Below, in pieces: positions 13,709-64,000 of a stretch of DNA of 64,000 bases. Source of the stretch: Candidatus Altiarchaeota archaeon (GTDB lineage Archaea > Altiarchaeota > Altiarchaeia > IMC4 > SCGC-AAA252-I15); assembly GCA_043800255.1 (NCBI GenBank), contig JAZDNF010000010.1, positions 1 to 64,000 on the forward strand, in the 5' to 3' direction. The position numbers and the translations under genes are program-made. Below the pieces are notes generated by a model. It worked only from the letters and a program-made list of their open reading frames with translations. It had not been told where the DNA came from and ran no database searches. Position 1 is the first letter of the stretch. Each line of letters starts with the position of its first letter.

Positions 13709-13709
13709 T

Positions 13710-26769: not shown

Positions 26770-26848
26770 TCATACCCCTACAATCCCCACCAGCTTATAA
26801 CTATGTAGGTCTAAATCAGCCTCTATTTTCTCAGTCTTCTCCAGCCTT

Positions 26849-26883: not shown

Positions 26884-27816
26884 ATGACGGGCACGAAAGT
26901 CATCAAACTGATGCTTGAAGCCGGTGGTAGCGAGAAGCTGCCGGCGCTGAAGGAGACTATAGTGGATGCTGCTATCGCAGCCTATCTAAAGATTGCATCT
27001 CCCGGAGTCGTCCTTCGGACTGGCGATTTGCGGGAAGAATACTTCTCCACTATGAAGGAGGCGACGAGTGATTTGAACGTGAACTCCAGAGACCTGCAGA
27101 GGGTGTATGATGTTATATTCGAATCCCGGAGGGAGGAGCGAGACTTCAGCAAAAAAGCCGGCTTCTTTCTCTCGGCATTAATAGACAATTCCAGTCATAA
27201 TGCATTCGATATAACCTCAGCCGTGCCGTTAGACTTTATCGGGTTCAAACTTGGCGTCAACAAAAAATTAACCCTTGAAGGCGATGTTGGAAAAGATGCT
27301 GGCATGAACCTGGCTGGCGGGGAAATGCACGTGCATGGTAATGCAGGCGAAGAAATTGGGCGGGAGATGAAACTAGGAAAGATAACTGTAGATGGCAGTG
27401 TATCCGGCTTTGCAGGTTATCTGATGGCTGGCGGCGACATTATGATAATGGGTAATGGCGGTGGCGCCACTGGAGACCGCATGAGTGGCGGGAACATACA
27501 CGTTAAAGGAAACACTGGAGTTCAGACTGGGGTAAGCATGACCGGTGGGACCATACGGGTCGAAGGAAATGCTGGAAGGAATACCGGCGACGGAATGAGA
27601 GGGGGAGCGATATATGTAGGTGGCAATATCGAGGACATAAGCAAAGAGTACGTTGACGGCGAAATTTGGGAGGCTGGCGTGCTGAAACGGCCCAGAACCA
27701 TTGACAAAACCCGTAGAATCGCATCAAACATGTTGGAAAAAGGCGGTGATGGCCTTATAGGTGCAGTAGACCTGGTTGGGGGTTCTATTGGGAGAGCCCT
27801 TGACAGATTTTTCTGA
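26884..27816 (+). CDS. Array gene A1: GXGXG (FwdC/GltB3-like) beta-helix protein with an extra C-terminal extension
   Basis: MTGTKVIKLML...LPALKE; AGFFLSALI; beta-helix coils. Confidence 0.9.
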   Translation: MTGTKVIKLMLEAGGSEKLPALKETIVDAAIAAYLKIASPGVVLRTGDLREEYFSTMKEATSDLNVNSRDLQRVYDVIFESRREERDFSKKAGFFLSALIDNSSHNAFDITSAVPLDFIGFKLGVNKKLTLEGDVGKDAGMNLAGGEMHVHGNAGEEIGREMKLGKITVDGSVSGFAGYLMAGGDIMIMGNGGGATGDRMSGGNIHVKGNTGVQTGVSMTGGTIRVEGNAGRNTGDGMRGGAIYVGGNIEDISKEYVDGEIWEAGVLKRPRTIDKTRRIASNMLEKGGDGLIGAVDLVGGSIGRALDRFF

Positions 27817-27829
27817 CATGGTAGCCCCC

Positions 27830-27865
27830 TTTTCTGTATGAACTGTTCTTTATATAATCTGGGAA
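27830..27865 (+). promoter_or_regulatory. Array upstream motif, copy 2
   Basis: TTTTCTGTATGAACTGTTCTTTATATAATCTGGGAA directly before the ATG. Confidence 0.6.
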
Positions 27866-28531
27866 ATGACAGGCACGAAAGTCGTTAAACTCAAGCTGGA
27901 TGATGGCGGCACAGCTGATAGGCTCCCCCAGTTGAGGGGCACTGCCGGGGATAGGGCGGTTCGACTATTCAGCGACACAAAGATGCCCACAGAGATAAAG
28001 GATCTTTCGCCTCTTGAATCTGATTGTCCTTGGGAATACAAGGATAAGATGCTGGAGGAGGGCAGGAAATTGGATGTGACTCCTGAGCAGTTGCGGCTGA
28101 TATTAGCTGAAGTCGAGGACAAGTTCTCAGAGGAGGCTGGCTTCGAGGAGAGGTTGGGCCTGTTTCTAACGGGTTTGGTTGAGGGTTCATCTCATAATGA
28201 ATTCGCCTTGAGGCCGAAGACCAAGTTGAAAGAGTTTGGGTACAGGCTAAGCGCCGATAAGAAGGTAACTCTTGAGGGGAACGTGGATGACGGCTTGTGC
28301 TTTCAGATGAGCGCTGGAGAGGTTCATATAAGGGGGAGCGCTGGTGAGGGCTTGGGCAATAGCATGACTGGCGGTCGTATCATAGTCGACGGCTACGCGG
28401 ACGAGTATTGCGGCATTGGCATGCAAGGCGGCAGGATTGACGTCGCTTTGGGGATAATAAGAAAGCACGACTGCCTCCGGGAAGGCGGAGAGGTCTGGGA
28501 GAAAGGGGTGAGGATATTCCCGAGAATATGA
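27866..28531 (+). CDS. Array gene A2 (PW subfamily)
   Basis: Leader, ERLGLFLTGL and beta-helix coils. Confidence 0.9.
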   Translation: MTGTKVVKLKLDDGGTADRLPQLRGTAGDRAVRLFSDTKMPTEIKDLSPLESDCPWEYKDKMLEEGRKLDVTPEQLRLILAEVEDKFSEEAGFEERLGLFLTGLVEGSSHNEFALRPKTKLKEFGYRLSADKKVTLEGNVDDGLCFQMSAGEVHIRGSAGEGLGNSMTGGRIIVDGYADEYCGIGMQGGRIDVALGIIRKHDCLREGGEVWEKGVRIFPRI

Positions 28532-29319
28532 CCTCTACGAAAATAATCAAACTGAATCTGGAGGATAGCGGTTCTGGCGGGAAACTCCCCGCTCTGAAGG
28601 ACCCTCTGGTCGGGAAGGCTTTTGCACTTTATAGAGCGGCCGAAGAGTTCCAGATTACAGATGAGGATGGTTTTCATGAATATGCTGAGCGGGTTGATAA
28701 AGAGTTTGAAGGTTCTAATCTCACCTCAGACGATATTCAAAAAGTATATGACGCGTTTGGTGAAGAGTTTCAGCTTGACGACGAATATGGAGATCGCCTG
28801 GGAATTATAATAAACGCTCTCATACAGCATTCAAATCACAGGAAGTTTCTGTTGAAAACCAAAAAGTCAATTGGTTATATCGGCTATAAGATGTCGGATG
28901 ATAAGGCTATAACAGTTGACGGCGATGTCGGCCGCTTCACAGGCGAGCTTATGGCAGCAGGTAAGATACATGTGAAAGGAAATGCAGGTGATAATATAGG
29001 TGTGGCGATGTTAGGTGGGTTGATTGAGGTTGATGGGAACGCAGGTAACTTCACTGGAGGTTACATGAATGGTGGGAAGCTTATCATCGGAAGGAATGCG
29101 GGAACCTATACTGGAGAGCATATGGGTGGTGGGGAAATACATGTCGGAGGGGGATGTGGCGAAGCGACAGGCGATAGGATGCGCAAGGGTTTGATAAGAG
29201 TTGCGGGCAAAATAGCCGGCATCTCAACTAATCTGGGAGAGGCTGATCCAAAATTTGCTAAAATCTATCAGGGGGATGAATTACTAGTGGGAAAAGATGA
29301 CAGGCACAAGAGTCGTTAA
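28528..29319 (+). CDS. Array gene A3
   Basis: MTSTKIIKLNLE leader; coils; ATGA overlap with A2. Confidence 0.9.
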   Translation: MTSTKIIKLNLEDSGSGGKLPALKDPLVGKAFALYRAAEEFQITDEDGFHEYAERVDKEFEGSNLTSDDIQKVYDAFGEEFQLDDEYGDRLGIIINALIQHSNHRKFLLKTKKSIGYIGYKMSDDKAITVDGDVGRFTGELMAAGKIHVKGNAGDNIGVAMLGGLIEVDGNAGNFTGGYMNGGKLIIGRNAGTYTGEHMGGGEIHVGGGCGEATGDRMRKGLIRVAGKIAGISTNLGEADPKFAKIYQGDELLVGKDDRHKSR

Positions 29320-30067
29320 GCTGAAGCTGGAGGATGGGCAAAGGTCTGGGAATTTGCCTAATCTAAAGGACCCTCTCGTGGAGAAGGCCCTGAGATTGTA
29401 TGACCTCCGTGAGGGCGTTAGCGTAGATCCGACGGAGGCTGGTTTTTGGGATTATCATAATGATGTTACCTTTGAGGCTGGGGACTTGAATGTCAGCCCA
29501 TCCCAGCTTCAGGAGGTGTACTCTTCTCTGGAGTCAAGGCATGGTGGCGACTCTCAGTTTTCAATCAGGGCAGGGTTACTGATGACCGCTTTAATCCAGA
29601 GTTCAAAAGCCAGTGAGTTCAATCTGACAGTGGCATCGCCCCTCGATTATATCGGCTTCAGTCTGAGAGCAGAGAACAACGCGGATAAGAGGGTCACGAT
29701 AAACGGGAATGTGGGAGACCACACCGGCGACAGGATGAGGGGAGGAGAAATCCATGTCACAGGAGACGCTGGAGACTATAGTGGCTATTCGATGCACGGT
29801 GGCATCATCAGGGTGGACGGCAGCGTGAAAGACGACACCGGGGTTGCGATGGTATCCGGTAAGATAGAGGTTGGCGGGAACGCCGGCCAGCGGACTGCCA
29901 GGCTGATGCGCGGCGGCGAAGTGCACGTTCACGGCAACGCCGGGGACGAGACAGCAGACCAGATTGAGGCCGGAACCCTGAAGGTGGACGGAACAGTCTC
30001 CCATTACGGCGATATTCCACCGACCAGCCCTACGTTAAGAATCTACGAGGGAGGCAAGCTGAGATGA
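29297..30067 (+). CDS. Array gene A4
   Basis: Leader and coils; 5' part nearly identical to A5. Confidence 0.9.
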   Translation: MTGTRVVKLKLEDGQRSGNLPNLKDPLVEKALRLYDLREGVSVDPTEAGFWDYHNDVTFEAGDLNVSPSQLQEVYSSLESRHGGDSQFSIRAGLLMTALIQSSKASEFNLTVASPLDYIGFSLRAENNADKRVTINGNVGDHTGDRMRGGEIHVTGDAGDYSGYSMHGGIIRVDGSVKDDTGVAMVSGKIEVGGNAGQRTARLMRGGEVHVHGNAGDETADQIEAGTLKVDGTVSHYGDIPPTSPTLRIYEGGKLR

Positions 30068-30822
30068 CCGGAACCAAGATTGTCAAACTGAGGTTGGAGG
30101 GTGGGCAAAGGTCTGGGAATTTGCCTAATCTAAAGGACCCCCTTGTTGAGAAGGCCCTGAGATTGTATGACCTCCGTGAGGGCGTTAGCGTAGATCCGAC
30201 GGAGGCTGGTTTTTGGGATTATCATAATGATGTTACCTTTGAGGCTGAGGGTTTGAACGTCAACTCAGAGCAGCTTCAGAAGGTATATCCGTCTCTGGAG
30301 TCAAGGCATGGTGGCGACCCCCAGTTTTCTATACGAGCGGGGCTGCTGCTGACCGCGTTAATCCAGAACTCAGCAGAGAAGGAGTTTAATCTCATCATCG
30401 GCTCTCCCCTGGATTATGTTGGTTTTAACCTGGAGGAGGATAAGAAGGTCACAATCAACGGGAACGTCGGCAATAATGTCTGCGAGCGAATGTTCGCAGG
30501 AACGGTCGAAGTCAACGGCAATGCGGGAAACAATATTGGAAATTGGATGGCAGATGGGAAAATCATAGTCAGAGGGAACGTGGGAGACGAGGCCTGCTGG
30601 GGTATGAAAGGGGGCGAGTTGATTGTAGACGGCAATGCTGGGGAAAGAACCGGAGGATGGCTGGAAAACGGGAGAATATCCGTGAGAGGTGACGTCGGAT
30701 CTGATACAGGCTTTAAGATGTACAGCGGCAGGATCGAGGTTGGTGGCATCGTCGGAGGGATAAGCTCTGCCATCAAAGGCGGCGAAATCTACAACAAAGG
30801 AAAGAAGGTGTGGCCCAAATGA
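30064..30822 (+). CDS. Array gene A5
   Basis: Leader and coils; ATGA overlap. Confidence 0.9.
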   Translation: MTGTKIVKLRLEGGQRSGNLPNLKDPLVEKALRLYDLREGVSVDPTEAGFWDYHNDVTFEAEGLNVNSEQLQKVYPSLESRHGGDPQFSIRAGLLLTALIQNSAEKEFNLIIGSPLDYVGFNLEEDKKVTINGNVGNNVCERMFAGTVEVNGNAGNNIGNWMADGKIIVRGNVGDEACWGMKGGELIVDGNAGERTGGWLENGRISVRGDVGSDTGFKMYSGRIEVGGIVGGISSAIKGGEIYNKGKKVWPK

Positions 30823-31682
30823 CGGGAACAAAAATCGTGAAGTTGAAGTTGGAGGGGGGTGGTGATGAGAAGCTGCCGAAGCTTATGGTGGAGCCTGCCA
30901 TAGAGAAGGCGCTGAAGTTATGCAATTCCCAGGAACTTGGAGTATACTATAAGTTTCGTCAAAGCGTCATAGAGGGTTCCAGGGGTTTTGATTTCGATTC
31001 AAAGCAGGTTCAGAAGCTGATATACGCTCTCGAGGCGCAACATGGGGACGATAAGGACTATACCCAAAAGGCTGGAGTCTTCCTATCAGCCATCATGCAG
31101 GGCTCAACTGTCAAAGAATTTAACATAACGGTGGTGAAGCCGCTTGACTGGCTGTGTTACATGCTGGAAGGGGGCAAGAATGTCACAATCAATGGGACCG
31201 TAGGAGCGAACCTGGGGGACCAGATGAAAGACGGGAAGATAACAGTCAACGGCGATGCCGGGATGAGCGTCGGCAACGAGGCCTTCGGGGGCAGGATTAT
31301 CGTGAACGGCAATGCCGGGGAATTCGTCGGAAACGGGATGGCAGGCGGCAACGTCCTCGTAAAAGGTAATGCAGCCGGCCGCGCAGGCTACAAGATGGAA
31401 GCAGGAGACATCACGATAGCGGGCTCATGCGGTGACGGACTCGGCCAGTGGATGTTGGCTGGGAACATACACGTGAAAAAGAACGCAGGCAATGATACGG
31501 GCCTTGGAATCAAAGGCGGCAAGCTGAAGGTGGACGGAGATGTTGGGGAGAACACCGGCTGGAACATGGAAAAAGGAATCATAGAGCTTGGAGGAGACTA
31601 CAAAAGCTTAAGCGAGGACATCCAAGGCGGCAGAATACTCCACAAGGGCAAACAAATTTGGCCTGTGGAAACCACAAGATGA
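30819..31682 (+). CDS. Array gene A6
   Basis: Start moved to MTGTK at the ATGA overlap. Confidence 0.9.
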   Translation: MTGTKIVKLKLEGGGDEKLPKLMVEPAIEKALKLCNSQELGVYYKFRQSVIEGSRGFDFDSKQVQKLIYALEAQHGDDKDYTQKAGVFLSAIMQGSTVKEFNITVVKPLDWLCYMLEGGKNVTINGTVGANLGDQMKDGKITVNGDAGMSVGNEAFGGRIIVNGNAGEFVGNGMAGGNVLVKGNAAGRAGYKMEAGDITIAGSCGDGLGQWMLAGNIHVKKNAGNDTGLGIKGGKLKVDGDVGENTGWNMEKGIIELGGDYKSLSEDIQGGRILHKGKQIWPVETTR

Positions 31683-32365
31683 CCCGCACCAAGATTGTCA
31701 AGCTGAAGCTGGATGAGAGCGGCACAGCTGACAGGCTCCCACAGCTGAGGGATAACGCTTTAGATGAGGTCGTGGAGAAAGCTGTTCAATTGTTCGGCGA
31801 GACTGAGATGCCTACAGAGTGGAGGAATGACGCCGTCCCCCAGGGCAGGCGGGATTGTCCCTGGAAGTACAAAGACCTGATGCTGGAGGAGGGCAGGAAA
31901 TTGGATGTGACATCTGACCAGTTGCAGACTATTCTTACTGTGGTCGAGAGCAGGTTCTCAGACCAAAAAGGTTTCTCAGAGAGGCTGGGTCTGTTCCTGA
32001 CCGGGTTGATAGAAGGTTCCACTTCTAACGAGTTCAGAATCAAGCCGACAACGTTGATAACAGATTTATGCTATCACCTAAAAGCTGATAAAAAAGTAAC
32101 TGTGGAAGGCGATATTGGGGATGATGTGTGTTTTCAGATGGCGGCGGGGAGGGTTCACATAAAAGGCAATGCTGGGGAAAGTTTAGGTCAATGGATGAAC
32201 GATGGTCACATAATAGTTGACGGCAACGCCGGCAGATACTGCGGCGTAAGCATCAAAGACGGCAAAATTGAGGTCGGCGGCGAAATCGCCGAAAAATACT
32301 ACTGCTCGCGTGAAGGCGGCGAAGTCTGGGAGAAAGGCAAGAGGATATTCCCAAGAGTAAGATGA
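31679..32365 (+). CDS. Array gene A7 (PW subfamily)
   Basis: MTRTK start at the ATGA overlap. Confidence 0.9.
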   Translation: MTRTKIVKLKLDESGTADRLPQLRDNALDEVVEKAVQLFGETEMPTEWRNDAVPQGRRDCPWKYKDLMLEEGRKLDVTSDQLQTILTVVESRFSDQKGFSERLGLFLTGLIEGSTSNEFRIKPTTLITDLCYHLKADKKVTVEGDIGDDVCFQMAAGRVHIKGNAGESLGQWMNDGHIIVDGNAGRYCGVSIKDGKIEVGGEIAEKYYCSREGGEVWEKGKRIFPRVR

Positions 32366-33294
32366 CAGGCACCAAAATCGTGAAGCTGAAGCTGGAGGGG
32401 GGCGGAGCAGCTGACCGGCTGCCTCAGTTGAGAGAGCCTAGCAGGCCTGTGGAAGTCGATGAGTTGGTGAGCCTTTATGATAAGGTGATTGTGCCTGAGA
32501 ATGAGACGTGGAATGTGGGAAAATACTATGAAGGTTATCTTGCTGAGACCAATGGGATGGACACAAATCCCAAGCAGCTTCAGGAGGTGCTTGACAGGCT
32601 TGAGGAAAACTACGGCCAGGAGAGGGACTACTCTGAGAAGGCAGGGTCCCTGCTGACTGCGCTGATGCAGAATTCGCATCACAAGCTCTTCGAGTTGAAG
32701 TCTGAGCTACCCCTGTCTCGTCTCGGTTTCAGGCTTTCTGGGAGAAAGAGCGTCAGCATATCAGGCGATGTCGGGTCTGACGTTGGCAGGGAAATGGAAA
32801 ACGGTTTCATAACTGTCAATGGACACAGCGGAGACGAGCTGGGGATGGAGATGAAAGGCGGCAGGATTGTGGTCGAAAAAACCGCCAAAGACCGTGCAGG
32901 ATACAAGATGGCAGGGGGCACGATTCACGTCAAAGGGGAAGTTAATGAGGAGGCCGGCAGGCTTATGACGGCAGGCACGATCGTGATCGAAAAAAATGCG
33001 GGAGTACTCACCGGCGATGGCATGGAAGGCGGCAGCATCCATGTTAAAGGGGATGCCACAGAAAAGACAGGTTTCATGATGAAAGGCGGCAGCATACTGG
33101 TGGACGGTAATGCTGGTCCAGACACAGGGTGCATGATGAAAGGCGGCTTCATACACGTCAAAGGCAACGCCTACCAGCAGACTGGGCCGCTGGCTGAGGG
33201 CGGCAAAATCATCATAGACAAGTGGGGCATGAGCGGCGGAGGCATCAAAGAAGGGTGCGAACTCTGGATAAACGGAAAAAAGGAGAACCCATGA
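32362..33294 (+). CDS. Array gene A8
   Basis: Leader and long beta-helix. Confidence 0.9.
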   Translation: MTGTKIVKLKLEGGGAADRLPQLREPSRPVEVDELVSLYDKVIVPENETWNVGKYYEGYLAETNGMDTNPKQLQEVLDRLEENYGQERDYSEKAGSLLTALMQNSHHKLFELKSELPLSRLGFRLSGRKSVSISGDVGSDVGREMENGFITVNGHSGDELGMEMKGGRIVVEKTAKDRAGYKMAGGTIHVKGEVNEEAGRLMTAGTIVIEKNAGVLTGDGMEGGSIHVKGDATEKTGFMMKGGSILVDGNAGPDTGCMMKGGFIHVKGNAYQQTGPLAEGGKIIIDKWGMSGGGIKEGCELWINGKKENP

Positions 33295-40931: not shown

Positions 40932-40958
40932 CCGGTTTAGACCCTCCGGTTCGCACAT

Positions 40959-40994
40959 TTTTCTGTCTGTACTGTTCTTTATATAATCAAGAAA
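40959..40994 (+). promoter_or_regulatory. Array upstream motif, copy 3
   Basis: TTTTCTGTCTGTACTGTTCTTTATATAATCAAGAAA directly before the ATG. Confidence 0.6.
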
Positions 40995-41672: not shown

Positions 41673-41677
41673 AAAAG

Positions 41678-45420: not shown

Positions 45421-45422
45421 CA

Positions 45423-48218: not shown

Positions 48219-48271
48219 CGGTTATAATAGAACAACTCTCGTATTTATTCAATACCTTCCCTCTATATACC

Positions 48272-50824: not shown

Positions 50825-50836
50825 GTTTTCCTGTTC

Positions 50837-53888: not shown

Positions 53889-53923
53889 CGGCGGAATCAC
53901 TGATTAGGCTCCTATTTCAGCGT

Positions 53924-53959
53924 TTTTTTGTCTGTACTGCTCCTTATATTATCAGGAAC
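53924..53959 (+). promoter_or_regulatory. Array upstream motif, copy 4
   Basis: TTTTTTGTCTGTACTGCTCCTTATATTATCAGGAAC directly before the ATG. Confidence 0.6.
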
Positions 53960-56914: not shown

Positions 56915-57759
56915 CGGGCACAAAGATTGTTAAACTGAATCTGGAAGGTGGAGCTAATGTCAAGCTGCCTAGCCTTCGGGAGACTGCCGTTGACCACAAA
57001 GCGGTTGAGAAGGCCATCAGGATATACGAGGAGACTAAGAGCCCGATGATAGACGGTTTCATACCGACTGAGGGGCAAAAACTTCAAGAGCTTGAGGAGG
57101 AATACTACCAGAAGATTATGAAGGCCACTAAGGGATTGAACGTGAACTCCGACCAGCTGCAGGAGGTAGTCGACTATCTGCAGGCTGATTTTGGGAGGGA
57201 GATGCGTTACACCCAGAACGGGTACTTTCTCACGGCGCTGATACGGCATTCGAAGTTCAGCGAGTTCACGATCCGGCCCAAGGAGCATTTGCATGATGTC
57301 GGTTTCAGACTGAACGCGGACAAGACGATCATAATCGAGGGGAACGTTGGCGGAGGCGTTGGAACCGAGATGGAGGCAGGCACGATAATCATCAAAGGTG
57401 ACGCTGGAAGCTATACTGGCTACGGGATGAAAGGAGGGAGAATACATATTCTGGGGAACGCTGAGGATGGAACAGCTGCCAGGATGGAAGCCGGGGATAT
57501 AATAGTGGAGGGTAACAGCGGAAAAAACACGGGCGAGCACATGCATGGCGGAAGCCTCGAAGTTGGAGGCAGTGCCGGAGACTACACTGCTCTAGGAATG
57601 GAGGCCGGGAAAATCTACATAAAGAGGAATTCGGGCGTCGAAACAGCCTATAGCATGGCCGGCGGCACACTCAAGGTTGACGGCAGAATAAAGGACATAA
57701 GCGTCATGTACGAGGCTGGCACCATCATAGAAGCTGGGACGCAGGTGAGACCATTATGA
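56911..57759 (+). CDS. Array gene A33
   Basis: Leader and coils. Confidence 0.9.
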   Translation: MTGTKIVKLNLEGGANVKLPSLRETAVDHKAVEKAIRIYEETKSPMIDGFIPTEGQKLQELEEEYYQKIMKATKGLNVNSDQLQEVVDYLQADFGREMRYTQNGYFLTALIRHSKFSEFTIRPKEHLHDVGFRLNADKTIIIEGNVGGGVGTEMEAGTIIIKGDAGSYTGYGMKGGRIHILGNAEDGTAARMEAGDIIVEGNSGKNTGEHMHGGSLEVGGSAGDYTALGMEAGKIYIKRNSGVETAYSMAGGTLKVDGRIKDISVMYEAGTIIEAGTQVRPL

Positions 57760-58568
57760 CGGGGACGAAAATCGTCAAAGTAAGGCTGGACGGCAACGGA
57801 GCCGGTGACGGACTTCCGAGGCTTAGGGAGGACCCTACCGTCAAGAAGGCGGTCGACCTGTTCGAGTCGTTGCCGTATAATATCTCAGCTTCGGATGACT
57901 CGAAATACTTTGATGGTGTCATTGACGGTTGCGAAGGGTGGAATCTACAGTCCCCGGAAATTCAGAAGACACTGGACACGCTGATAGAAAAACATTCCAT
58001 GAGCGCTGGCTTCATCAAGAGGGCCGGACTCTTCATATCCGCTTTGATAGAGGGTTCAACGCACAGGAAATTCGACTTAGAAGTTCATCAACCCCTGGAT
58101 TATATCGGGTACCATCTGCGAGGCGGGAAGGAGATAACATTGAAGGGAGACGTTGGCAAGGGCTTGGGATTCGGGATGGGCGGCATCGAAGCCAGCAGCA
58201 TAACCTTGGACGGCAACGCAGGATTCGGAGTTGGAGGCTGGATGTGCTCTGGCAAAATCCACGTCAAGGGAGACGCCGGGAACTCGGTCGGCTTCTGCTT
58301 GGGGAAGTTCTTTTTCCCGGACATGGGAGAGCGTGGCATACCCCTGCCGCATACACCGCCCCTGATAATAATAGACGGCAACGCGGGAACCGAGACTGGA
58401 AACGGGATGCGCGAGGGTAAAATCCAGGTGAATGGGGAGATGGGAGAGAATGCAGGTCCTAGTATGGACGGCGGCATCATAGAAGCAGGTAAGGTTAAAG
58501 GGGTGAGCGCACATTTCAAATGGGGGAGAATCTACGAAAATGGAGTGCTTATAGCAGGACGAGAATGA
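57756..58568 (+). CDS. Array gene A34
   Basis: Leader and coils with a loop insertion. Confidence 0.9.
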   Translation: MTGTKIVKVRLDGNGAGDGLPRLREDPTVKKAVDLFESLPYNISASDDSKYFDGVIDGCEGWNLQSPEIQKTLDTLIEKHSMSAGFIKRAGLFISALIEGSTHRKFDLEVHQPLDYIGYHLRGGKEITLKGDVGKGLGFGMGGIEASSITLDGNAGFGVGGWMCSGKIHVKGDAGNSVGFCLGKFFFPDMGERGIPLPHTPPLIIIDGNAGTETGNGMREGKIQVNGEMGENAGPSMDGGIIEAGKVKGVSAHFKWGRIYENGVLIAGRE

Positions 58569-59374
58569 CCGGGACGAAAGTAGTCAAGCTGAGGTTGGAC
58601 GAGGAAGGGTCGGTTGGCAGGCTGCCGAACCTGATGGATGCGGTGGTTGAGAAGGCTGTTAGCGTGTTCGCTCGCAGGAACTATTTCACGTTGGCGAAGG
58701 ATGGGGGTGAGGCGTATGATCATATGCTAAAGGATGTGCAGGGCTTTGACGTCAGTAGGAGTCAGCTGCAGGGCATCCTCGGAATGCTGGAGGAGAAGTA
58801 CAAGCACAGTCCCTGGCGGTTCACGATGATCGGGCCGTTCCTGTCCGCCCTGGTTGAGAAATCGCATGAGAACGAGTTCGAGCTGGTGTTGACCGATAAG
58901 GTGCAGTCCATCGGCTACAGGCTGAGAGACGGCAAGAGGATAACATGCATCGGAGACGTCGGCAGCGCAGGCGACAAAATGTCAGGCGGCCTGATAATGG
59001 TGAAAGGCGACATCGGCGACCTGATGGGGCGGGACATGACCGGGGGAAAAATCATCGTAGCGGGCGGCGCCGGGAACCAGACAGGATATCATATGAGCGG
59101 CGGCGAAATCGAGATCAAAAAATCAGCAAGAGACTATCCAGGATGCAACATGAGCGGGGGAAAAATCAAGATCGGAGAAAATGCCGGCAACTACGCTGGA
59201 TTCAACATGAGCAAAGGCGAAATCCACATCCTGGGAAACGCTAACATCGGCGCAGGCTCAGGCATGAGCGGAGGCAAAATAACCGTGGACGGCAGGATAT
59301 TCGGGCTCATAAGAGACGTCAAAGGCGGCGAGATTTGGGAAGGCGGCACGCAAATCTGGCCGAAACAAAAATGA
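58565..59374 (+). CDS. Array gene A35
   Basis: Start moved to MTGTK at the ATGA overlap. Confidence 0.9.
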   Translation: MTGTKVVKLRLDEEGSVGRLPNLMDAVVEKAVSVFARRNYFTLAKDGGEAYDHMLKDVQGFDVSRSQLQGILGMLEEKYKHSPWRFTMIGPFLSALVEKSHENEFELVLTDKVQSIGYRLRDGKRITCIGDVGSAGDKMSGGLIMVKGDIGDLMGRDMTGGKIIVAGGAGNQTGYHMSGGEIEIKKSARDYPGCNMSGGKIKIGENAGNYAGFNMSKGEIHILGNANIGAGSGMSGGKITVDGRIFGLIRDVKGGEIWEGGTQIWPKQK

Positions 59375-60135
59375 CCGGCACGAAGGTTATCAAACTCAGG
59401 CTTGAGGGAGGCGCTGATAGTAATCTGCCAAAGCTCAGGGAAGGCATTGCAACTGAGTTGTGTGTTCTCTATGAACAGCTTCCCTATACTCTAAGTTTTG
59501 ATGTTACTAACTCTAATATAAGCAAACTGACGGAAACGTTAGGTTTTGATAGGGGGCAGCTTGAGAGCATCGATTCCAGCCAACTTCAGTGCGTGTACGA
59601 TGCACTTGAGGACAGATTCAAGGGAGATGGGAATTTCGGCCACAAGTGCGGCATCCTACTGACGTATCTTATGAGTCATTCAAGGCATAATGAGTTCAAG
59701 CTGAAGGTGAACAAGCCATTAAGCCGTCTCGGGGCATACTTCACGGAGGGTAAGAAGCTGACAGTCGTTGGGGACGTTAAAGATTATGTAGGATATAAGA
59801 TGCGTGGGGGAGAGATAACAGTAAAAGGCTCGGCAGGAGCGTGGTTGGGATATGAGATGGAACAAGGGAGCATACTCCTGGAGAAGAACGCTGATACATG
59901 GGCTGGAAACCAAATGAAAGGGGGAAGACTTCACGTGAAGGGGAATTCAGGAGAATGGACTGGCGAGCGCATGGAAGGCGGCATATTGCAGGTGGACGGT
60001 GACAGCGGCGAGGAAACCGGAAATAATATGGATGGTGGCGTAATAAACGTGAACGGCAAGATTGCGGGTGTTGGGCGCATCTTTGAAGATTCAACGGGTG
60101 AATTACGGCACAGGGGGGTGAAAATAGCACCATGA
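59371..60135 (+). CDS. Array gene A36
   Basis: Start moved to MTGTK at the ATGA overlap. Confidence 0.9.
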   Translation: MTGTKVIKLRLEGGADSNLPKLREGIATELCVLYEQLPYTLSFDVTNSNISKLTETLGFDRGQLESIDSSQLQCVYDALEDRFKGDGNFGHKCGILLTYLMSHSRHNEFKLKVNKPLSRLGAYFTEGKKLTVVGDVKDYVGYKMRGGEITVKGSAGAWLGYEMEQGSILLEKNADTWAGNQMKGGRLHVKGNSGEWTGERMEGGILQVDGDSGEETGNNMDGGVINVNGKIAGVGRIFEDSTGELRHRGVKIAP

Positions 60136-60821
60136 CCGGCACGAAGGTCGTCAAGTTGAGGTTGGAGGATGATGGTAAGGATTTGCCGAAGCTGAAGGGC
60201 AGCGTCATTGATGAGGCTGTCGAGCTGTTCGAGAAAATCGACTGGGAGAATAATCTGGTGGGATACCATGAAAAAGTTCTGAAGAAAACCAGAAGATTGG
60301 ACGCTAACTCGGCTGCGGTGCAGGGTATAGTCTACCAGTTGGAAGACAACTTTGCTAAAGGCGACATGCAGGACAAGTTCTACTTCAAGCGGATGGGAGC
60401 CTTCCTCACAGGGTTGATAGAGAATTCAACCTCAGAGGAACTAGAATTCGAAACCAGGACTCCACTGGACTACATAGGCTACCTGATGAACGCGGAGAAG
60501 ACCATCACAGTAAACGGTGCGGCAGGCGATATGACCGGGTACATGATGAGAAGAGGCCTCATAAGGGTTAAAGGCGACTCAGGGTTCTGGACCGGCTGCC
60601 AGCTTGCAGGCGGAAAAGTCGAAGTCGAAGGCAGCACAGGCGAGTACACCGGCCAGCAGATGGAGACTGGAGAGATAACCGTGAAAAAGGATGCTGGAAG
60701 GAAAACAGGGCTGCGCATGAAAGGCGGCAGAATCGAAGTCGGCGGCAGCATCGGAGACATCGGACCTGTCATCAAAGGCGGCGAAATCTACAACAAAGGG
60801 GAGCGGGTGTGGCCGAAATGA
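60132..60821 (+). CDS. Array gene A37
   Basis: Leader and coils. Confidence 0.9.
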   Translation: MTGTKVVKLRLEDDGKDLPKLKGSVIDEAVELFEKIDWENNLVGYHEKVLKKTRRLDANSAAVQGIVYQLEDNFAKGDMQDKFYFKRMGAFLTGLIENSTSEELEFETRTPLDYIGYLMNAEKTITVNGAAGDMTGYMMRRGLIRVKGDSGFWTGCQLAGGKVEVEGSTGEYTGQQMETGEITVKKDAGRKTGLRMKGGRIEVGGSIGDIGPVIKGGEIYNKGERVWPK

Positions 60822-61567
60822 CGGGAACCAAGGTAATCAAGTTGAGGCTGGAGCAGGGCGGTGCAGCCGAGAGGCTTCCGGACCTTAAGGGCGATGTCAA
60901 AGGCAAGCTTGTCAGAATATTCAACGAGACAGATTATTTCGAGTCAGATGAGGGAGTATCCTGCTATGACCGGTTCGTCCAGCAGACGGAAGGGTTAGGC
61001 GCCGGTCAGGAGCGGATACAGGATGTGTTAGACTTCCTATTGGATGATGAGAATGCAATAGACCAGGTCTACCGTCAAAAAGTCGGATACCTTGTGAGCG
61101 CGCTAATCCATAACTCACGCCAGAGGGAATTCAGGATACGCCTGAAACATCCCGTAGACTGGGTCGGCTACAGGCTTGAAGGCGGGAAAAAGATAACCGT
61201 AGACGGTGATGTGGCATACGGTGTCGGCTCGGAGATGCGCTCTGGGACGATAATCGTCAATGGAAATTCATGGTTGGGAGCCGGCTTTAAAATGGCAGGA
61301 GGAAACGTCATAATACGAGGGAACTCAGGCAGGCTCACCGGGTTGGAAATGACCGGAGGTCGGCTTCTGATTAAAGGGGGCGCGGGAGACGAGACAGGCG
61401 CTAGTATGACTGGAGGAGTACTACACGTAAAAAAGGATGTCGGAGCAGAGACTGGGATAGGCATGGCAGATGGCATAATCAACGTAGGCGGGGACATCAA
61501 GAGCATATCCGACGACACTGGATATGGGAAAATCTACCACAAAGGAGAGAAGGTGCGCCCAAGATGA
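60818..61567 (+). CDS. Array gene A38
   Basis: Start moved to MTGTK at the ATGA overlap. Confidence 0.9.
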   Translation: MTGTKVIKLRLEQGGAAERLPDLKGDVKGKLVRIFNETDYFESDEGVSCYDRFVQQTEGLGAGQERIQDVLDFLLDDENAIDQVYRQKVGYLVSALIHNSRQREFRIRLKHPVDWVGYRLEGGKKITVDGDVAYGVGSEMRSGTIIVNGNSWLGAGFKMAGGNVIIRGNSGRLTGLEMTGGRLLIKGGAGDETGASMTGGVLHVKKDVGAETGIGMADGIINVGGDIKSISDDTGYGKIYHKGEKVRPR

Positions 61568-62277
61568 CGGGAACCAAGGTCGTAAAGTTGAAGCTGGATG
61601 GTAGTGGGAAATCAAAAGAGCTGCCCAGTCTCATGGACGGTGTCGTAGAGAAGGCCGCGGCTATTGTAGGCGAGCTTGAGCCTCTTGTGGGAGGGTGGAA
61701 TCACGTATACGAGCACATAGAAGAAAAAACAAGGCGCATGCATGTCACGCCAAAGCAGTTGCAGGATATGATAGAGATCGGCGAACACCAATACTTGATA
61801 GAGATCGGCGAACACCCATACTCTGAGGTTGAAAAATACAGTTGGAAGATGGGACTCCTCGTGTCCGCATTAATTAACAGTTCCCCCCACGACAACTTCA
61901 CAGTGAAGACTGAGATACCCTTATGCTATCTGGGCTACCGCCTGAAAGAGGGGAAGAAGATTACCGTGGAAAGTAAGGTTGACGAATCTGTTGGCAGGGA
62001 GAACATGGGCGGCCATATTCACGTGAAAAAAAATGCCGGCTGGTATGCCGGCGCCGATATGAGAACAGGGCTGCTGGAAATAGACGGAGATGCCGGGCGT
62101 GCGACAGGCGCCCGGATGAAAGGCGGGGAACTGCACGTCAAAGGAGACACTGAATTTGACACGGCAGTAGAGATGGAGGGGGGAAAACTCATAATAGATG
62201 GGAAAGCGATGGGCGCAGGACATAGTATAAAAGGCGGAGAAATCTGGGAAGCCGGGAAAAAGGTGTTCTCAAGATGA
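61564..62277 (+). CDS. Array gene A39
   Basis: Leader and coils; internal 27-bp duplication. Confidence 0.9.
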   Translation: MTGTKVVKLKLDGSGKSKELPSLMDGVVEKAAAIVGELEPLVGGWNHVYEHIEEKTRRMHVTPKQLQDMIEIGEHQYLIEIGEHPYSEVEKYSWKMGLLVSALINSSPHDNFTVKTEIPLCYLGYRLKEGKKITVESKVDESVGRENMGGHIHVKKNAGWYAGADMRTGLLEIDGDAGRATGARMKGGELHVKGDTEFDTAVEMEGGKLIIDGKAMGAGHSIKGGEIWEAGKKVFSR

Positions 62278-63140
62278 CAGGCACGAAAGTCGTAAAGCTG
62301 AAGTTGGAAGACGGTGGCGCTGAGAGGCTCCCGCATCTGAAGGAGTCTGCTGTCAGTAAATCGTTGGAAGTTTACAAAAAAACCGAGAACATGAGCCTGT
62401 CTGATCACATGCTTATGCTAGATTATCATGAGACAGTGTCTAAGGAATCAAAAGGTTTGGATTTAACTTCAGCAGAGATTCAGGAACTATCTGATCTGCT
62501 TGAGGATAGTGCTTCAGTAGGTTTATCCCACCCGTTTAGACGTGGGATATTCCTGTCAGCTCTGATACAAAGTTCCAGTCAAAAAAAATTCAGACTAAAA
62601 ACCAAAACCCTCTTGCATTGCATTGGATACATGTTGAATGATAAAGAAAAGAAGATTACTGTGGAAGGCGATGCCGGAGATTACACTGGACAGCATATGA
62701 ATGCAGGACAAGTTAGCATTACAGGAAATGCAGGCGATTTTACCGGCTGGAGCATGAGTGGTGGCTCGATAAAAATCGAAAAAGACGCCCGAAATAATCT
62801 CGCAGCATTTATGAGTAATGGTATCATACTCGTAAAAGGAAACGCAAGAGACTACGCCGGGCAGGAGATGGTGGGAGGCAGACTACATATTGGAGGAACA
62901 GCAAGAAACTACCTAGGCAATTCCGTAAAATCAAATGCTACAATACGGGTTGAAAAGGACATAGGAGATCATGCCGCGCTTATGATGAGCGGGGGGACCA
63001 TCGAGGTCAAAGGAAAAGCCGGGAAATATCTTGGATCACATATGGTTGGCGGCACAGTAAAGGTGGCAAAAGGAATCGAGGAGATCAGCAAAGACTTCCA
63101 AGACGGGAGCATACAAGAAAAAGGAGAGTGGGTGAGATAA
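62274..63140 (+). CDS. Array gene A40
   Basis: Leader and coils. Confidence 0.9.
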   Translation: MTGTKVVKLKLEDGGAERLPHLKESAVSKSLEVYKKTENMSLSDHMLMLDYHETVSKESKGLDLTSAEIQELSDLLEDSASVGLSHPFRRGIFLSALIQSSSQKKFRLKTKTLLHCIGYMLNDKEKKITVEGDAGDYTGQHMNAGQVSITGNAGDFTGWSMSGGSIKIEKDARNNLAAFMSNGIILVKGNARDYAGQEMVGGRLHIGGTARNYLGNSVKSNATIRVEKDIGDHAALMMSGGTIEVKGKAGKYLGSHMVGGTVKVAKGIEEISKDFQDGSIQEKGEWVR

Positions 63141-64000
63141 TGACCAGCACTAAAGTCGTTAAGTTAAAGTTGGAGGGTGAGGGCGGCGCTGAGAGGCTCC
63201 CGCATCTGAAGGAGGGAAAAATCAAGCAGGCTTTGGAACTGTTTGACAGCATACCCTACCGCGCCCAGGGTGAAACCAATTTCGACTATGAGGGCTATTA
63301 CCGGAAAGTGCTTGAGGGCGCTGAGATGATAAACGCTTCAGAATCGGAAGTCCAGAAGATTCTCGCAGCGTTGGAGGCCAAGCAGTCTGAAATCGGCGGG
63401 TATCCAGAGCATGTCGGAACCTTCATAACCGCGATGATGCAGGGTTCCAAAGCACGGGAGTTCACCCTCAGGCCGGCATACTACCTGCACCATATCGGTG
63501 AGTACCTGCAAGGTGACAAGAAGATCACAGTATTCGGTGACATGGGCACGGTGGCGAGCCGCATGCGCGGCGGCGAGCTGATAATCAAGGGGAACGTCTT
63601 CGATAACTCAGGTGAGAAGATGTCCGGCGGAAAGCTGATAATAGAAGGGCATGCAGGCGGCGACTTGGGGCGTGAGATGGGTGGCGGCCTGATAGAGGCT
63701 GCAGAGGCTCGGGGCAGGCTATTAGGTTGTTACATGTGGGGCGGCACGATCAGGATCAAGGGAGACGCCGGCGACGAGATAGGAGCGAACATGTCGAAAG
63801 GCGAAATATACGTCGGAGGGAACGCTGGCAAAAAACTGGGCTATAAGATGCACGGCGGAAAGATTGTAGTAGATGGGGAAGCTGGATACAATGTGGGCGA
63901 TTTCGCCGACGGCGGGCAGATCATCGTCGGAAAGAAGATAACGTCGCTTGGATTTGTGTGCTCGCAGTGCGAGGTCATAGTAGCAGGAGAGAAGGTGGCG
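63140..64000 (+). CDS. Array gene A41 (truncated by the window end; not in the ORF track)
   Basis: TAATG overlap; MTSTKVVKLKLEGEGGAERLPHLKE...VGTFITAMMQGS... with coils open to 64000. Confidence 0.9.
   Translation, partial: MTSTKVVKLKLEGEGGAERLPHLKEGKIKQALELFDSIPYRAQGETNFDYEGYYRKVLEGAEMINASESEVQKILAALEAKQSEIGGYPEHVGTFITAMMQGSKAREFTLRPAYYLHHIGEYLQGDKKITVFGDMGTVASRMRGGELIIKGNVFDNSGEKMSGGKLIIEGHAGGDLGREMGGGLIEAAEARGRLLGCYMWGGTIRIKGDAGDEIGANMSKGEIYVGGNAGKKLGYKMHGGKIVVDGEAGYNVGDFADGGQIIVGKKITSLGFVCSQCEVIVAGEKVA

Follow-up and report, generated by a model that had tools for sequence, protein, structure and literature searches.

A 97-gene array of tagged beta-helix paralogs enclosing a MoxR-vWA gene pair in a Candidatus Altiarchaeota genome

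Introduction

Couples of a MoxR-class ATPase and a vWA protein are known as assembly or maturation factors, and the GXGXG beta-helix is represented by FwdC, subunit C of formylmethanofuran dehydrogenase, and by glutamate synthase. Here we analyse a 64-kb stretch of DNA (the window) from the 1.75-Mb genome of a Candidatus Altiarchaeota archaeon, in which a MoxR-vWA pair lies inside a long tandem array of tagged beta-helix genes. As the original prediction of an undescribed system had anticipated, no description of such a system was found in the papers searched, and PADLOC gave no match for any of five proteins tried.

Results

Size and layout of the array

The window holds 41 plus-strand paralogs (26884-64000), 25 upstream and 16 downstream of the vWA/AAA pair. 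Their family membership is far beyond chance, as the family HMM scores them with E-values from about 5e-30 to 7e-138. The original count of 41 co-oriented genes, the last cut by the window edge, is thus confirmed but understates the array, more than half of which lies beyond that edge (56 further paralogs, to contig position 107661). On the full contig 97 genes stand back to back over 80,778 bp (26884-107661), about 4.6% of the genome's DNA, which is an extraordinary copy number. This is by far the largest of the tagged beta-helix arrays in our analysis, where copy number per genome ranges from 1 to 97. Adjacent genes overlap by four bases at 75 of the 96 junctions, in the window as ATGA at 31 of 40. 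The paralogs are old and, as predicted, almost all intact despite their divergence (median pairwise identity 36%). Large secreted-type proteins flank the array on both sides (an M6 peptidase, NHL and LTD giants, subtilases and FG-GAP proteins).

Ahead of the array, the spacer at 26739-26883 (plus strand) contains a T-run and, just upstream of the g01 ATG, the TATA-like box TAATATAACC; from its sequence it may be the promoter. The same TATA-like motif also occurs in internal spacers and ahead of unrelated genes. The first gene, g01 (26884-27816, 310 aa; PF01493 40.6 bits), is followed by a 49-bp spacer (27817-27865) with a T-run and a TTTATATAA box, a possible terminator and promoter. There follow g02 (27866-28531, 221 aa), g03 (28528-29319, 263 aa), g04 (29297-30067, 256 aa) and g05 (30064-30822, 252 aa), the last two with an identical 100-nt stretch in common that we read as local gene conversion. 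The series continues with g06 (30819-31682, 287 aa), g07 (31679-32365, 228 aa), the structure-modelled g08 (32362-33294, 310 aa; PF01493 42.9 bits), g09 (33291-34076, 261 aa), g10 (34073-34750, 225 aa), g11 (34747-35382, 211 aa), g12 (35379-36239, 286 aa), g13 (36236-37108, 290 aa), g14 (37105-37899, 264 aa), g15 (37896-38753, 285 aa), g16 (38750-39721, 323 aa; PF01493 42.0 bits) and g17 (39718-40473, 251 aa). It is closed by a truncated member, g18 (40470-40931, 153 aa; E 4.6e-30, no Pfam match), which consists of tag and helical domain only, and by a 63-bp spacer (40932-40994) again with a T-run and TTTATATAA box.

Beyond this spacer lie g19 (40995-41672, 225 aa), g20 (41678-42583, 301 aa), g21 (42580-43257, 225 aa), g22 with the variant tag MALTRRTKVVKLKLE (43248-43937, 229 aa), g23 (43934-44803, 289 aa), g24 with a GTG start (44800-45420, 206 aa) and the short g25 (45423-46001, 192 aa), which has few coils and a PF01493 score below cut-off (16.4 bits). 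Downstream of the embedded pair we find g26 (50837-51580, 247 aa), g27 (51577-52548, 323 aa) and g28 (52545-53888, 447 aa; PF01493 in two stretches, 53.5 bits), a natural two-unit fusion whose second unit is untagged. After a 71-bp spacer (53889-53959) with a T-run and a CTTATATTA box come g29 (53960-54730, 256 aa), g30 (54727-55464, 245 aa), g31 with the tag MNRQKIIKLKLE (55461-56141, 226 aa), g32 (56138-56914, 258 aa), g33 (56911-57759, 282 aa), g34 (57756-58568, 270 aa), g35 (58565-59374, 269 aa), g36 (59371-60135, 254 aa), g37 (60132-60821, 229 aa), g38 (60818-61567, 249 aa), g39 (61564-62277, 237 aa), g40 (62274-63140, 288 aa) and g41 (63140-64000 in the window, 289 aa), which ends at contig position 64009.

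An array of similar genes in a metagenome-assembled genome, found in part in only one other run, could reflect false expansion of a few genes by the assembler. The paralogs are, however, only 29-41% identical (5th-95th percentile; maximum 82%), and all gene pairs together share just 66 exact runs of at least 20 nt, the longest of 100 nt, which leaves no substrate for collapse or duplication. In addition, short contigs of a related population from the other run, 84-97% identical, reach into 28 of 30 bins of 40001-60000. The chance of an artefact is therefore negligible.

Tag, helical domain and beta-helix

The predicted common layout is borne out, with g18 (no beta-helix) and g28 (two fused units) as exceptions in the window. 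Each paralog is built from a conserved N-terminal tag, a variable four-helix domain, an AG-FL-AL helix and a capped right-handed GXGXG beta-helix of Gly/Met-rich 19-residue coils (about 1 to 12 per protein by anchor count) with a C-terminal cap. The tag follows the consensus M-T-G-T-K-I/V-V-K-L-x-L-E/D ... L-P-x-L-K, and in 96 of the 97 proteins an acidic residue stands directly after VKLxL. Like this amphipathic N-strand, the C-terminal hairpin is conserved (E-I-x-x-K-G-x-x-V-x-P). Elsewhere in the genome the tag occurs in only two genes, neighbours on another contig, one of which encodes an all-alpha protein; the tag is thus portable.

In the AF2 model of g08 (pLDDT 91.2) confidence is low for residues 1-30; helices occupy residues 32-104, and a beta-helix capped at both ends extends over residues 109-308. 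Foldseek matches FwdC (top hit 5t5i_C), FhcC and GltS through the beta-helix only, and PF01493 scores above cut-off in four of six paralogs tested, in agreement with the predicted likeness to FwdC and glutamate synthase.

The PF01493 matches, a TIGR03122 score above cut-off for g16 (160.6 bits against 130.65) and the label FwdC that JGI gives to relatives might suggest true subunit C genes. This identity is ruled out. TIGR03122 stays below cut-off in three of four paralogs and covers only their coil part (within model positions 67-242 of 260), while the genome's real FwdC matches over its full length (212 bits) and lies in a fwdA-C-B-D operon on a different contig. Phylogeny also separates the two: the 6 FwdC rows and the 96 array rows are each set apart from the rest of the tree by a supported branch (SH-aLRT 100 and 96). 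FwdA, FwdB, FwdD and other GltB domains are absent from all 18 window proteins scanned (six paralogs, the vWA and AAA proteins and ten ORFs upstream of the array), as had been noted.

Variability and selection

Across 341 canonical 19-residue coils, positions 0, 2, 4, 11, 14 and 17 are almost fixed and eight of the 19 (1, 3, 8, 9, 12, 13, 15 and 18) have an entropy above 3.2 bits. The invariant residues are Gly, Met, Ile and Val, with Ile and Val facing inward and the variable sites outward. This pattern supports the view, already put forward in the original prediction, of the beta-helix as a constant scaffold with variable surfaces. The repurposing of an enzyme subunit, which that prediction also proposed, may lie behind its origin.

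The paralogs are under purifying selection, with whole-gene dN/dS of 0.13-0.32 in the ten closest pairs. Pooled over 12 pairs, dN/dS is 0.10 in the tag, 0.18 at conserved coil sites and 0.48 at variable coil sites. The value for the variable coil sites is thus below 1 and does not support positive selection. Constraint is strongest on the tag, whose pS of 0.67 indicates that the peptide rather than the DNA is conserved.

The embedded ATPase and adaptor

Convergent with g25 lies the gene of a putative HExxH and vWA/MIDAS adaptor (46002-48218, minus strand, 738 aa; PF00092 31.3 bits), which comprises an N-terminal domain with a HEAGH motif, a charged low-complexity linker and a C-terminal vWA domain whose MIDAS motif reads DGSGS. 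Its AF2 model (pLDDT 65.9) matches the Rea1 MIDAS domain (6qt8, E 5.5e-8) and the NorD VWA domain (9qhd_G, E 1.5e-5) in Foldseek. A 53-bp divergent spacer (48219-48271) with a TATA-like box beside each start codon separates it from the MoxR-class AAA+ ATPase (48272-50824, plus strand, 850 aa), which has a coiled-coil N-terminal region, an AAA_5 core at about residues 316-709 and a C-terminal rhodanese domain (49.8 bits). The core resembles AAA_5/NorQ proteins of the MoxR class: the AAA_5 match stands at 21.8 bits, just under the cut-off of 22, the Atlas feature score to AAA_5 clusters is 0.96-0.97 and the structural TM to NorQ-like clusters is 0.84 (by matched row).

The pair had first been taken for an interruption, and the paralogs might act alone as decoys, buffers or binding proteins around a passenger. 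The vWA gene is indeed on the opposite strand. Yet the AAA gene stops 12 bases (50825-50836) ahead of g26 on the same strand, and the strong constraint on the tag calls for a common partner. Moreover, when metagenomes were searched from the adaptor alone, tandem N-tagged paralogs (1 to at least 12) were immediate neighbours of an adaptor homologue (26-38% identity; 11 homologues found) in 10 of 12 loci, a pattern that chance insertion would not produce. An ATPase homologue is also present in two of these ten; in loci L058 and L067 ATPase homologues lie beside vWA homologues. The paralogs there are all-alpha, unlike the Altiarchaeota beta-helix proteins, and relatives of the pair thus accompany a different client family, as a passenger might. 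Taken together, the context of the 12 loci argues that the pair is a partner of the array.

Array and tag are both absent from the phylum's 60 other genomes. The family nevertheless extends beyond this genome, since arrays of a sister family, which has its own, different tag and includes several natural fusions, occur in Micrarchaeota and further DPANN genomes. Tags are uniform within each genome and differ between lineages. An AAA_5 ATPase adjoins the DPANN arrays in five loci, and an AAA_5 ATPase together with a vWA-type gene in three (L041, L055 and L056); a fourth vWA-type gene, in L057, is next to a partial beta-helix ORF, and no ATPase was seen there. For most DPANN arrays no such hub gene lies within 10 kb, which would suit paralogs that act alone. 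The same applies to the relation between the window pair and the DPANN hub genes, where homology is not established: phmmer gave no match in 43 DPANN loci, BLASTP found motifs only and hhalign probabilities were 20% and 29%. On balance we regard independent action of the paralogs as unlikely.

Discussion

The conserved tag and variable body would also fit export, with the tag serving as a non-classical signal for export or delivery and the paralogs acting as surface or injected effectors, similar to the large N-terminally conserved secreted protein families of some bacteria. Secreted-type proteins flank the array, and the hosts of the sister families are DPANN and probably CPR, organisms that are often episymbionts. 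Against this, none of the 97 proteins has an N-terminal hydrophobic stretch, a signal peptide or a TM segment, as the original prediction had seen in the window; a Kyte-Doolittle mean above 1.6 over 19 residues occurs in one of them, at an internal position. Neither within the array nor next to it is there a gene for a membrane channel or a secretion ATPase, and the CODH/ACS and fwd genes would fit an autotroph more than a symbiont. We consider export very unlikely.

Alternatively, the paralogs could be subunits of a large cytoplasmic filament, sheath or lattice, each N-terminal strand docking on the next subunit's C-terminal hairpin cap and the MoxR-vWA pair serving as assembly chaperone. Conservation of both strand and hairpin, the fusions in g28 and the sister family and the known role of such couples would suit this, and translational coupling would nearly equalise the amounts of all members. 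A fixed structure, however, predicts neither copy numbers of 1 to 97 between genomes, nor about 1 to 12 coils with hypervariable surfaces, nor all-alpha cargo beside the same adaptor family, and in the g08 model both helix ends are capped. A polymer is therefore improbable.

We favour, at a probability of about 0.5, the view that the paralogs are tagged repeat-scaffold clients of the MoxR-vWA machine and form a library, probably a recognition repertoire. In this model array and gene pair would form one system, with the 97 genes expressed from few long, translationally coupled transcripts as soluble cytoplasmic proteins with a floppy N-terminal tag. Most likely the library would supply germline-encoded binding scaffolds that recognise foreign (viral) or partner proteins or act as decoys for them, and the ATPase would switch this repertoire. 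The tag would be the handle by which the machine recognises every member, and the putative HExxH domain may trim it. As in other AAA+/MIDAS couples, the near-invariant acidic residue ending the tag's amphipathic strand may act as MIDAS metal ligand, whereupon the ATPase would remodel, load or release its client.

Extent and organisation of the paralog array

The original prediction had placed 41 co-oriented plus-strand paralogs between position 26884 and the end of the window, 25 before and 16 after an embedded vWA/AAA gene pair and the last cut by the edge, and this count, the coordinates and the layout are all correct. A profile HMM of the 41 proteins, which it had called for, was built and searched against all six-frame ORFs of the genome (1.75 Mb in 17 contigs, 93% complete). 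With E up to 1e-3 the HMM matched 102 ORFs, 97 of them on the same 131-kb contig (C15). Once start codons are assigned, these form one co-oriented run of 97 genes (g01-g97) at positions 26884-107661, so that the window contains less than half of the array, which takes up 80,778 bp, or 4.6% of the genome. The domain scan of the window proteins also identified the archaeal genes Nop5, FtsZ and archaeal-type phosphoglycerate mutase.

Neighbouring paralogs overlap by the four bases ATGA at 31 of the 40 junctions in the window, and four-base overlaps occur at 75 of the 96 junctions of the whole array. Apart from the junction holding the embedded pair, only seven junctions carry spacers of 38-71 bp, three of them in the window. 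A T-run followed by a TATA-like box is found in five of the seven and in the stretch upstream of g01, while the spacers g66/g67 and g69/g70 fit this pattern poorly. Judged from sequence, the motif-bearing spacers probably divide the array into a few long operons, serving as their terminators and promoters. A loose Shine-Dalgarno-like motif precedes 66 of the 97 paralog starts (a raw count without shuffle control) and overlaps the codons of the conserved C-terminal K-V-W-P.

Only about 3-10 bases separate the TATA-like box of the array spacers (TATATAA/TATATTA) from the start codon that follows it (window 26739-26883, 27817-27865, 40932-40994, 48219-48271 and 53889-53959, and near 3662-3712 of L003, the downstream array flank). 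The same close placement recurs at either end of the vWA/AAA spacer and in front of an unrelated subtilase gene downstream. The usual archaeal distance from TATA box to start codon is much longer, and promoters or leaders in this lineage may be arranged in an unusual way.

Opposite the paralogs lie long antisense ORFs, the largest 426 aa (window 33626-34417, 38980-39849 and 51774-53054, all on the minus strand, among others); these are Pro/Ser/Leu-rich mirror images of the Gly-rich coils and almost certainly not genes. Coding-strand GC skew is strong across the array, at +0.24 to +0.30 in most 2-kb bins. Very large secreted-type proteins flank the array on both sides (window 1996-19037 and 23262-26738; L003:3713-19475). 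Those upstream comprise NHL-repeat/LTD proteins of 1417 and 2485 aa, CarboxypepD_reg/Ig-like proteins and an M6 peptidase with CBM96 and LTD domains, and those downstream two subtilases and FG-GAP/CUB proteins.

Architecture of the paralogs

The 97 proteins are 153-447 aa long, with a median of 256. In an alignment of 92 members, in whose consensus x denotes a position without majority residue, the N-terminal tag reads MTGTKVVKLKLE and is followed some seven residues on by LP-x-LK. The consensus further contains a helix with AG-x-FLTAL-x-QNS, coils with the repeated pattern G-x-AG-xxx-G-xx-M-x-GG-x-I-x-V, and a C-terminal cap, GEI-xxx-G-xx-V-x-P. Only two departures from this plan were noted, g18, which lacks the beta-helix, and g28, which is a fusion of two units. 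Signal-peptide-like or TM-like N-termini were found in none of the 97 paralogs.

Structure prediction and mapping of the variable residues, both suggested beforehand, were carried through. The AlphaFold2 model of g08, computed with the family alignment, is a right-handed beta-helix (pLDDT 91.2, pTM 0.87) in which residues 1-30 have low confidence, four helices span residues 32-104 and the beta-helix covers residues 109-308. The coil period is 19 residues, a spacing that occurs 341 times compared to 26 for the next commonest. Within the coil, positions 0, 2, 4, 11, 14 and 17 are nearly fixed as I, V, G, G, M and G, and the entropy exceeds 3.2 bits at each of the eight positions 1, 3, 8, 9, 12, 13, 15 and 18. 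A regular-expression count of the coil anchors gives 0-12 coils per protein. A complex prediction of three g08 copies, run without controls, gave a score of 0.00 and is uninformative either way on self-association.

Relation of the array to FwdC

FwdC/FmdC, FhcC and the C-terminal domain of glutamate synthase (PF01493; 5t5i_C, 6s6y_C, 1ofe_A) are, like the paralogs, right-handed beta-helices of Gly-rich coils. Foldseek with the g08 model matched FwdC (5t5i_C, E 7e-5), FhcC and GltS with probabilities of 1.00-0.97 over the beta-helix only, the match to FwdC having 36% identity over 164 columns of the coil region. Four of six tested paralogs pass the PF01493 cut-off of 32.5 bits (g01 40.6, g08 42.9, g16 42.0 and g28 53.5), g25 stays below it with 16.4 bits and g18 has no match to this family. 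With the FwdC equivalog model TIGR03122 (cut-off 130.65 bits) four paralogs score 129.4, 160.6, 103.8 and 99.1, one of them above the cut-off, and all matches are confined to the coil part, within positions 67-242 of 260.

The genome does hold an FwdC, on contig C8, which scores 212.1 bits with TIGR03122 over positions 1-257. Its gene stands between FwdA-type amidohydrolase, FwdB-type molybdopterin and FwdD-type genes, beside CODH/ACS, within a true formylmethanofuran dehydrogenase operon, fwdA-C-B-D with FdhD (L070:3969-11743, minus strand). This operon and the CODH/ACS delta-subunit genes that adjoin it fit an autotrophic Wood-Ljungdahl lifestyle. None of the 18 window proteins scanned is FwdA, FwdB or FwdD. 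FwdC differs from the array paralogs in lacking the tag, the four-helix domain and the C-terminal cap, and also in copy number, with one FwdC compared to 97 paralogs.

In a tree of 143 sequences, comprising 96 rows of the array family (g18 and g28 were left out), 41 of a sister family from DPANN archaea and six FwdC, each group falls on one side of a supported branch, with SH-aLRT values of 96 for the array, 95 for the DPANN sister family and 100 for FwdC. That the paralogs are themselves FwdC is therefore ruled out by the coil-only TIGR03122 match, the separate clade and the presence of the real operon on C8. Grouping with true FwdC beside a complete fwd operon, which the original prediction had named among the findings that would overturn it, did not occur.

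Divergence, selection and integrity of the array

Pairwise identity among the paralogs has a median of 36% (5th-95th percentile 29-41%, maximum 82%) and shows no drop with distance along the array; the tree is star-like, with 80 of its 140 inner branches unresolved. For the ten closest pairs dS is 0.6-2.3 and dN/dS 0.13-0.32. Pooled over 12 close pairs, dN/dS is 0.10 for the tag, which is the most constrained part of the paralogs, 0.18 for the conserved coil sites, 0.26 for the helical domain and 0.48 for the variable coil sites, and positive selection was not detected. The synonymous sites of the tag are near saturation in these pairs (pS 0.67). Together with the low dN/dS this indicates that the tag is kept by selection on the peptide and not by homogenisation of the DNA. 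Gene conversion is present but rare, with 66 exact shared runs of at least 20 nt among the paralogs, the longest being 100 nt between g04 and g05. Since no reverse transcriptase (PF00078) is found in the 93%-complete genome, a diversity-generating retroelement is unlikely.

Such limited nucleotide repetition, with so few shared runs and so low a median identity, makes it very unlikely that the array is an assembly artefact. One other groundwater DNA run matches the locus, with a share of 0.06, and no RNA run is among the matches listed. Short contigs of a related population (176-602 bp among those listed) touch 28 of 30 bins of positions 40001-60000; in the eight pieces listed, array genes differ by 6-16% and the genes of the embedded pair by 3-5%, and some joints connect non-adjacent paralogs. 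This gap in divergence and the odd joints could come from cross-matching of paralogs at 80% likeness or from unitig jumps at the conserved tag.

The embedded ATPase and adaptor

In the ATPase (window 48272-50824, plus strand, 850 aa) the N-terminal third is charged and predicted to be helical; it is followed by a P-loop core with the motifs GEPGTGKTT and IIDEFN and by a C-terminal rhodanese domain. Pfam AAA_5 matches residues 350-396 only, with 21.8 bits against a cut-off of 22, and phmmer against the PDB finds the rhodanese domain only. In the ESM Atlas the core reaches feature scores of 0.96-0.97 to AAA_5, NorQ and CbbQ clusters, and residues 315-707 align with NorQ-named archaeal clusters at a structure TM of 0.83-0.84 by matched row, evidence that is lead-level, the Atlas model of the ATPase having a pLDDT of 0.63. 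The rhodanese domain (residues 743-838, window 50496-50788) has an acidic active-site loop, C-D-S-D-G-D-S.

The adaptor (window 46002-48218, minus strand, 738 aa) consists of a region with an HEAGH motif starting at residue 101, a long charged low-complexity linker and a vWA domain with DGSGS starting at residue 535 (PF00092, 31.3 bits against a cut-off of 23.8). Its AlphaFold2 model has a pLDDT of 65.9, and Foldseek retrieves the Rea1 MIDAS domain (E 5.5e-8), the NorD VWA domain (E 1.5e-5) and integrin I domains. All matches of the fold search fall on the vWA domain and none on the HExxH domain, and no Pfam peptidase family matches the adaptor even at E up to 5; HEAGH is near-invariant in 12 homologues. 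The linker (about residues 290-425, window 46900-47300) contains E/K/Q/G runs and GKGKP repeats and is predicted to be disordered (pLDDT below 50). On the basis of these models, the embedded pair is a predicted MoxR-class ATPase with a MIDAS adaptor.

A sister family in DPANN archaea

The wider HMM search proposed at the outset gave the copy number and neighbours of the family in 60 other genomes of the phylum and, beyond them, in DPANN loci, with a tagged array in none of the 60. No genome among these has more than four family matches, and most matches are limited to the coils. A few extend over the helical domain; they are untagged proteins, 359-739 aa long, that occur singly and without an ATPase or adaptor gene in the neighbourhood, and these homologues leave the origin of the array unexplained.

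With an E limit of 1e-30, an exhaustive profile search of 1.84 billion cluster representatives gave 923 matches. In the top 150, every match starting at profile position 1 is the genome's own protein, and the tag occurs in no external match. The external matches belong to the sister family, which has an N-terminal motif RFxxYxPExE...R, an KAGLFLSALINNG helix, coils and a GGKIYHKGKLI cap. Using an alignment of 10 sequences we found 43 loci of this family in species-representative genomes, mostly of Micrarchaeota; one locus each comes from MAGs labelled 'Candidatus ainarchaeum', Aenigmatarchaeota, Nanoarchaeota and a Desulfobacterales bacterium. The genes form tandem co-oriented arrays of up to 11 per locus, and five Micrarchaeota genomes of 1.0-1.5 Mb have 18-51 matches each. 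Tags differ among lineages and are uniform inside one genome.

An AAA_5 ATPase adjoins the DPANN beta-helix array in five of the loci examined. Three of these five, L041, L055 and L056, also encode close by a protein of 508-583 aa with DxSxS and weak VWA profile matches. In L057, where no ATPase was seen, a fourth protein of this type (467 aa) adjoins a partial beta-helix ORF. The alignment of these vWA-type proteins contains two invariant His residues, and L041 has a canonical HEIGH motif. Phmmer of the window ATPase and adaptor against the 43 DPANN loci gave no match and BLASTP against the DPANN hub genes, that is the ATPase and vWA-type genes, nothing significant; hhalign reached a probability of 20% for the adaptor and 29% for the ATPase, with only the MIDAS and Walker B regions aligned.

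The DPANN arrays thus resemble the window array in having a lineage-specific N-terminal tag, a helical domain with a KAGLFLSAL helix, GXGXG coils, a GGKIYHKGK cap and tandem order, and in some cases an AAA_5 ATPase and a vWA-type gene beside them. They differ in the tag, which is of the RFxxYxPExE type, and in being scattered over many contigs, whereas the window family is almost wholly one 97-gene array with one further member on contig C10. Moreover, the hub genes have no homology detectable by BLASTP or hhalign to the window pair, and the beta-helix families are separate clades. In the Micrarchaeota locus L037 a 338-aa protein encoded after the AAA_5 gene (14930-15943) has its own lineage's N-terminal tag (..AASRFGRYGP..) and no match to the beta-helix family HMM or to Pfam, which shows that tags are portable between cargo types.

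Adaptor homologues adjoin other tagged arrays

The question whether the embedded pair is a partner or a passenger of the array was approached from the adaptor alone. Eleven adaptor homologues were found at 26-33% identity, and a scan of JGI metagenome contigs with the adaptor gave 12 loci (L058-L069), the adaptor family matching with E values from 2e-74 to 2e-12 in L058-L068. None of the 12 contains a member of the beta-helix family. In the ten whose neighbourhood was examined (all but L063, of 2.0 kb, and L069, of 1.6 kb), the adaptor gene has as its direct neighbours tandem co-oriented genes, from one to at least 12 in number, that encode proteins of 250-300 aa. These share an N-terminal tag (e.g. 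INIKDLVLEEPE..FDPERD), whose form is I-x-x-L-x-h-E/D, and their C-terminus is likewise conserved (..VEITDKGLEI.MP....LPE.KKF).

The largest arrays of these all-alpha proteins have 11 to 13 genes: L059 holds 11 tagged paralogs, L067 12-13 together with an ATPase homologue (E 1e-78) and L058 nine together with an ATPase homologue (E 7e-81). At least two of the metagenome loci are bacterial by their flanks, L065 (Obg, GatB, L25) and L059 (sigma-70 fusion). The arrays of L058-L068 are like the window array in the adaptor family, in the ATPase family at two loci and in their tandem tagged clients. The ATPase homologue of L067 has no rhodanese domain, and its C-terminus resembles the tail motif of its client paralogs (..LPLPDQKQI). 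A Fic/DOC-family gene stands directly beside hub genes in two cases, at L037:12551-13519 in the Micrarchaeota beta-helix array and at L059:12305-13291 in the bacterial all-alpha array, which, with two cases only, may be chance.

The all-alpha clients have no sequence relationship to the beta-helix family (hhalign probability 0.5%), and an HMM of the all-alpha family has no match in the whole genome at E up to 10. The likeness of both families in tag, I-x-x-L-x-h-E/D, and in C-terminal hairpin is one of motif only. An acidic residue ends the tag in 96 of the 97 array members and in 34 of 41 members of the all-alpha family. Outside the array, the tag occurs in the whole genome in only two neighbouring genes, on contig C10 (L071:7052-8958, minus strand), which encode a 219-aa beta-helix member and an all-alpha protein of about 415-416 aa. 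This pair ends an operon with a Sigma70_r4-like repeat protein and several orphan proteins. Taken together, the sequence comparisons suggest that the tag travels with the hub and not with the cargo fold.

Discussion

The MIDAS site of the Rea1, CbbO and NorD systems binds an acidic residue of the client. By analogy, the MIDAS site of the adaptor would grip the tag, the ATPase would then remodel or release the client, and the HExxH domain might possibly trim the tag. The contact between tag and hub, the remodelling and the biological target are all inferred. The model offers a directly testable hypothesis in terms of the tag, its acidic residue, the MIDAS site and the ATPase.

The clients are repeat scaffolds with caps, free to vary in length and in their outward residues, and this is the hallmark of binder libraries. 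In other genomes members of the hub family stand with alpha-solenoid-like clients, the alpha-solenoid being another classic binding scaffold. For these reasons we consider a recognition or decoy repertoire more likely than a structural assembly of fixed composition. More specifically, the locus may represent a new prokaryotic recognition system, in which a germline-encoded library would supply as many as about 100 repeat-scaffold sensors, built as beta-helix or alpha-solenoid, that have a genome-specific N-terminal handle and are read by one MoxR-type ATPase with a MIDAS/HExxH adaptor; we regard this as a tentative proposal with a probability of roughly 0.3. If it holds, an innate-immunity-like receptor repertoire would be common to Altiarchaeota, DPANN archaea and small-genome bacteria. 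PADLOC matched none of five proteins.

Both the beta-helix domain and the MoxR-vWA couple are known already. Literature searches found no description of such a couple with a large array of tagged paralogous clients, and no paper on tagged beta-helix arrays of Micrarchaeota or other DPANN archaea. New here are the 97-gene extreme in an archaeon not labelled DPANN, an independent connection, by way of the adaptor family, with bacterial arrays of all-alpha clients, and the selection profile of the tag. An expansion to 97 tandem genes is among the largest that can be expected in so small a prokaryotic genome, and it has apparently gone unremarked because automatic annotation calls its members 'FwdC' or 'hypothetical'. 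If the model of the tag as a handle is true, it would define a new MoxR-vWA mode, in which one motor serves a large diversifying client library, and would account for a large block of the 'dark' genes found in DPANN archaea and some small-genome bacteria.

The MoxR-vWA-centric ternary conflict systems (Kaur, Burroughs, Iyer and Aravind 2020, eLife, PMC7159879) are described in passages of that paper as having a variable non-enzymatic third component, proposed to be a sensor of invaders. These passages give VMAP, inactive STAND, FtsH or beta-propeller proteins as third components and a fixed order VMAP-MoxR-vWA, mostly in multicellular bacteria. As described there, these systems share with the window system a MoxR and vWA core with a further variable component. 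The window system differs from the types defined in the same passages in that its third component is an array of beta-helix paralogs and its pair is divergent (vWA on the minus, AAA on the plus strand). Neither FwdC nor GXGXG occurs in the main text of the paper, and the passages referred to above describe no tandem client arrays.

The closest parallels to the window pair itself are NorQ/NorD, CbbQ/CbbO and RavA/ViaA, in each of which an AAA_5-type ATPase stands beside a vWA protein with a DxSxS MIDAS, and Rea1 (midasin), whose MIDAS domain resembles the vWA domain of the adaptor by Foldseek. To our knowledge, MoxR-vWA machines have until now been dedicated chaperones of single enzymes. The known couples serve one defined enzyme or particle, whereas the window pair has 97 tagged paralogs as its presumed clients, and compared with them it carries two additional domains, the HExxH domain of the adaptor and the rhodanese domain of the ATPase.
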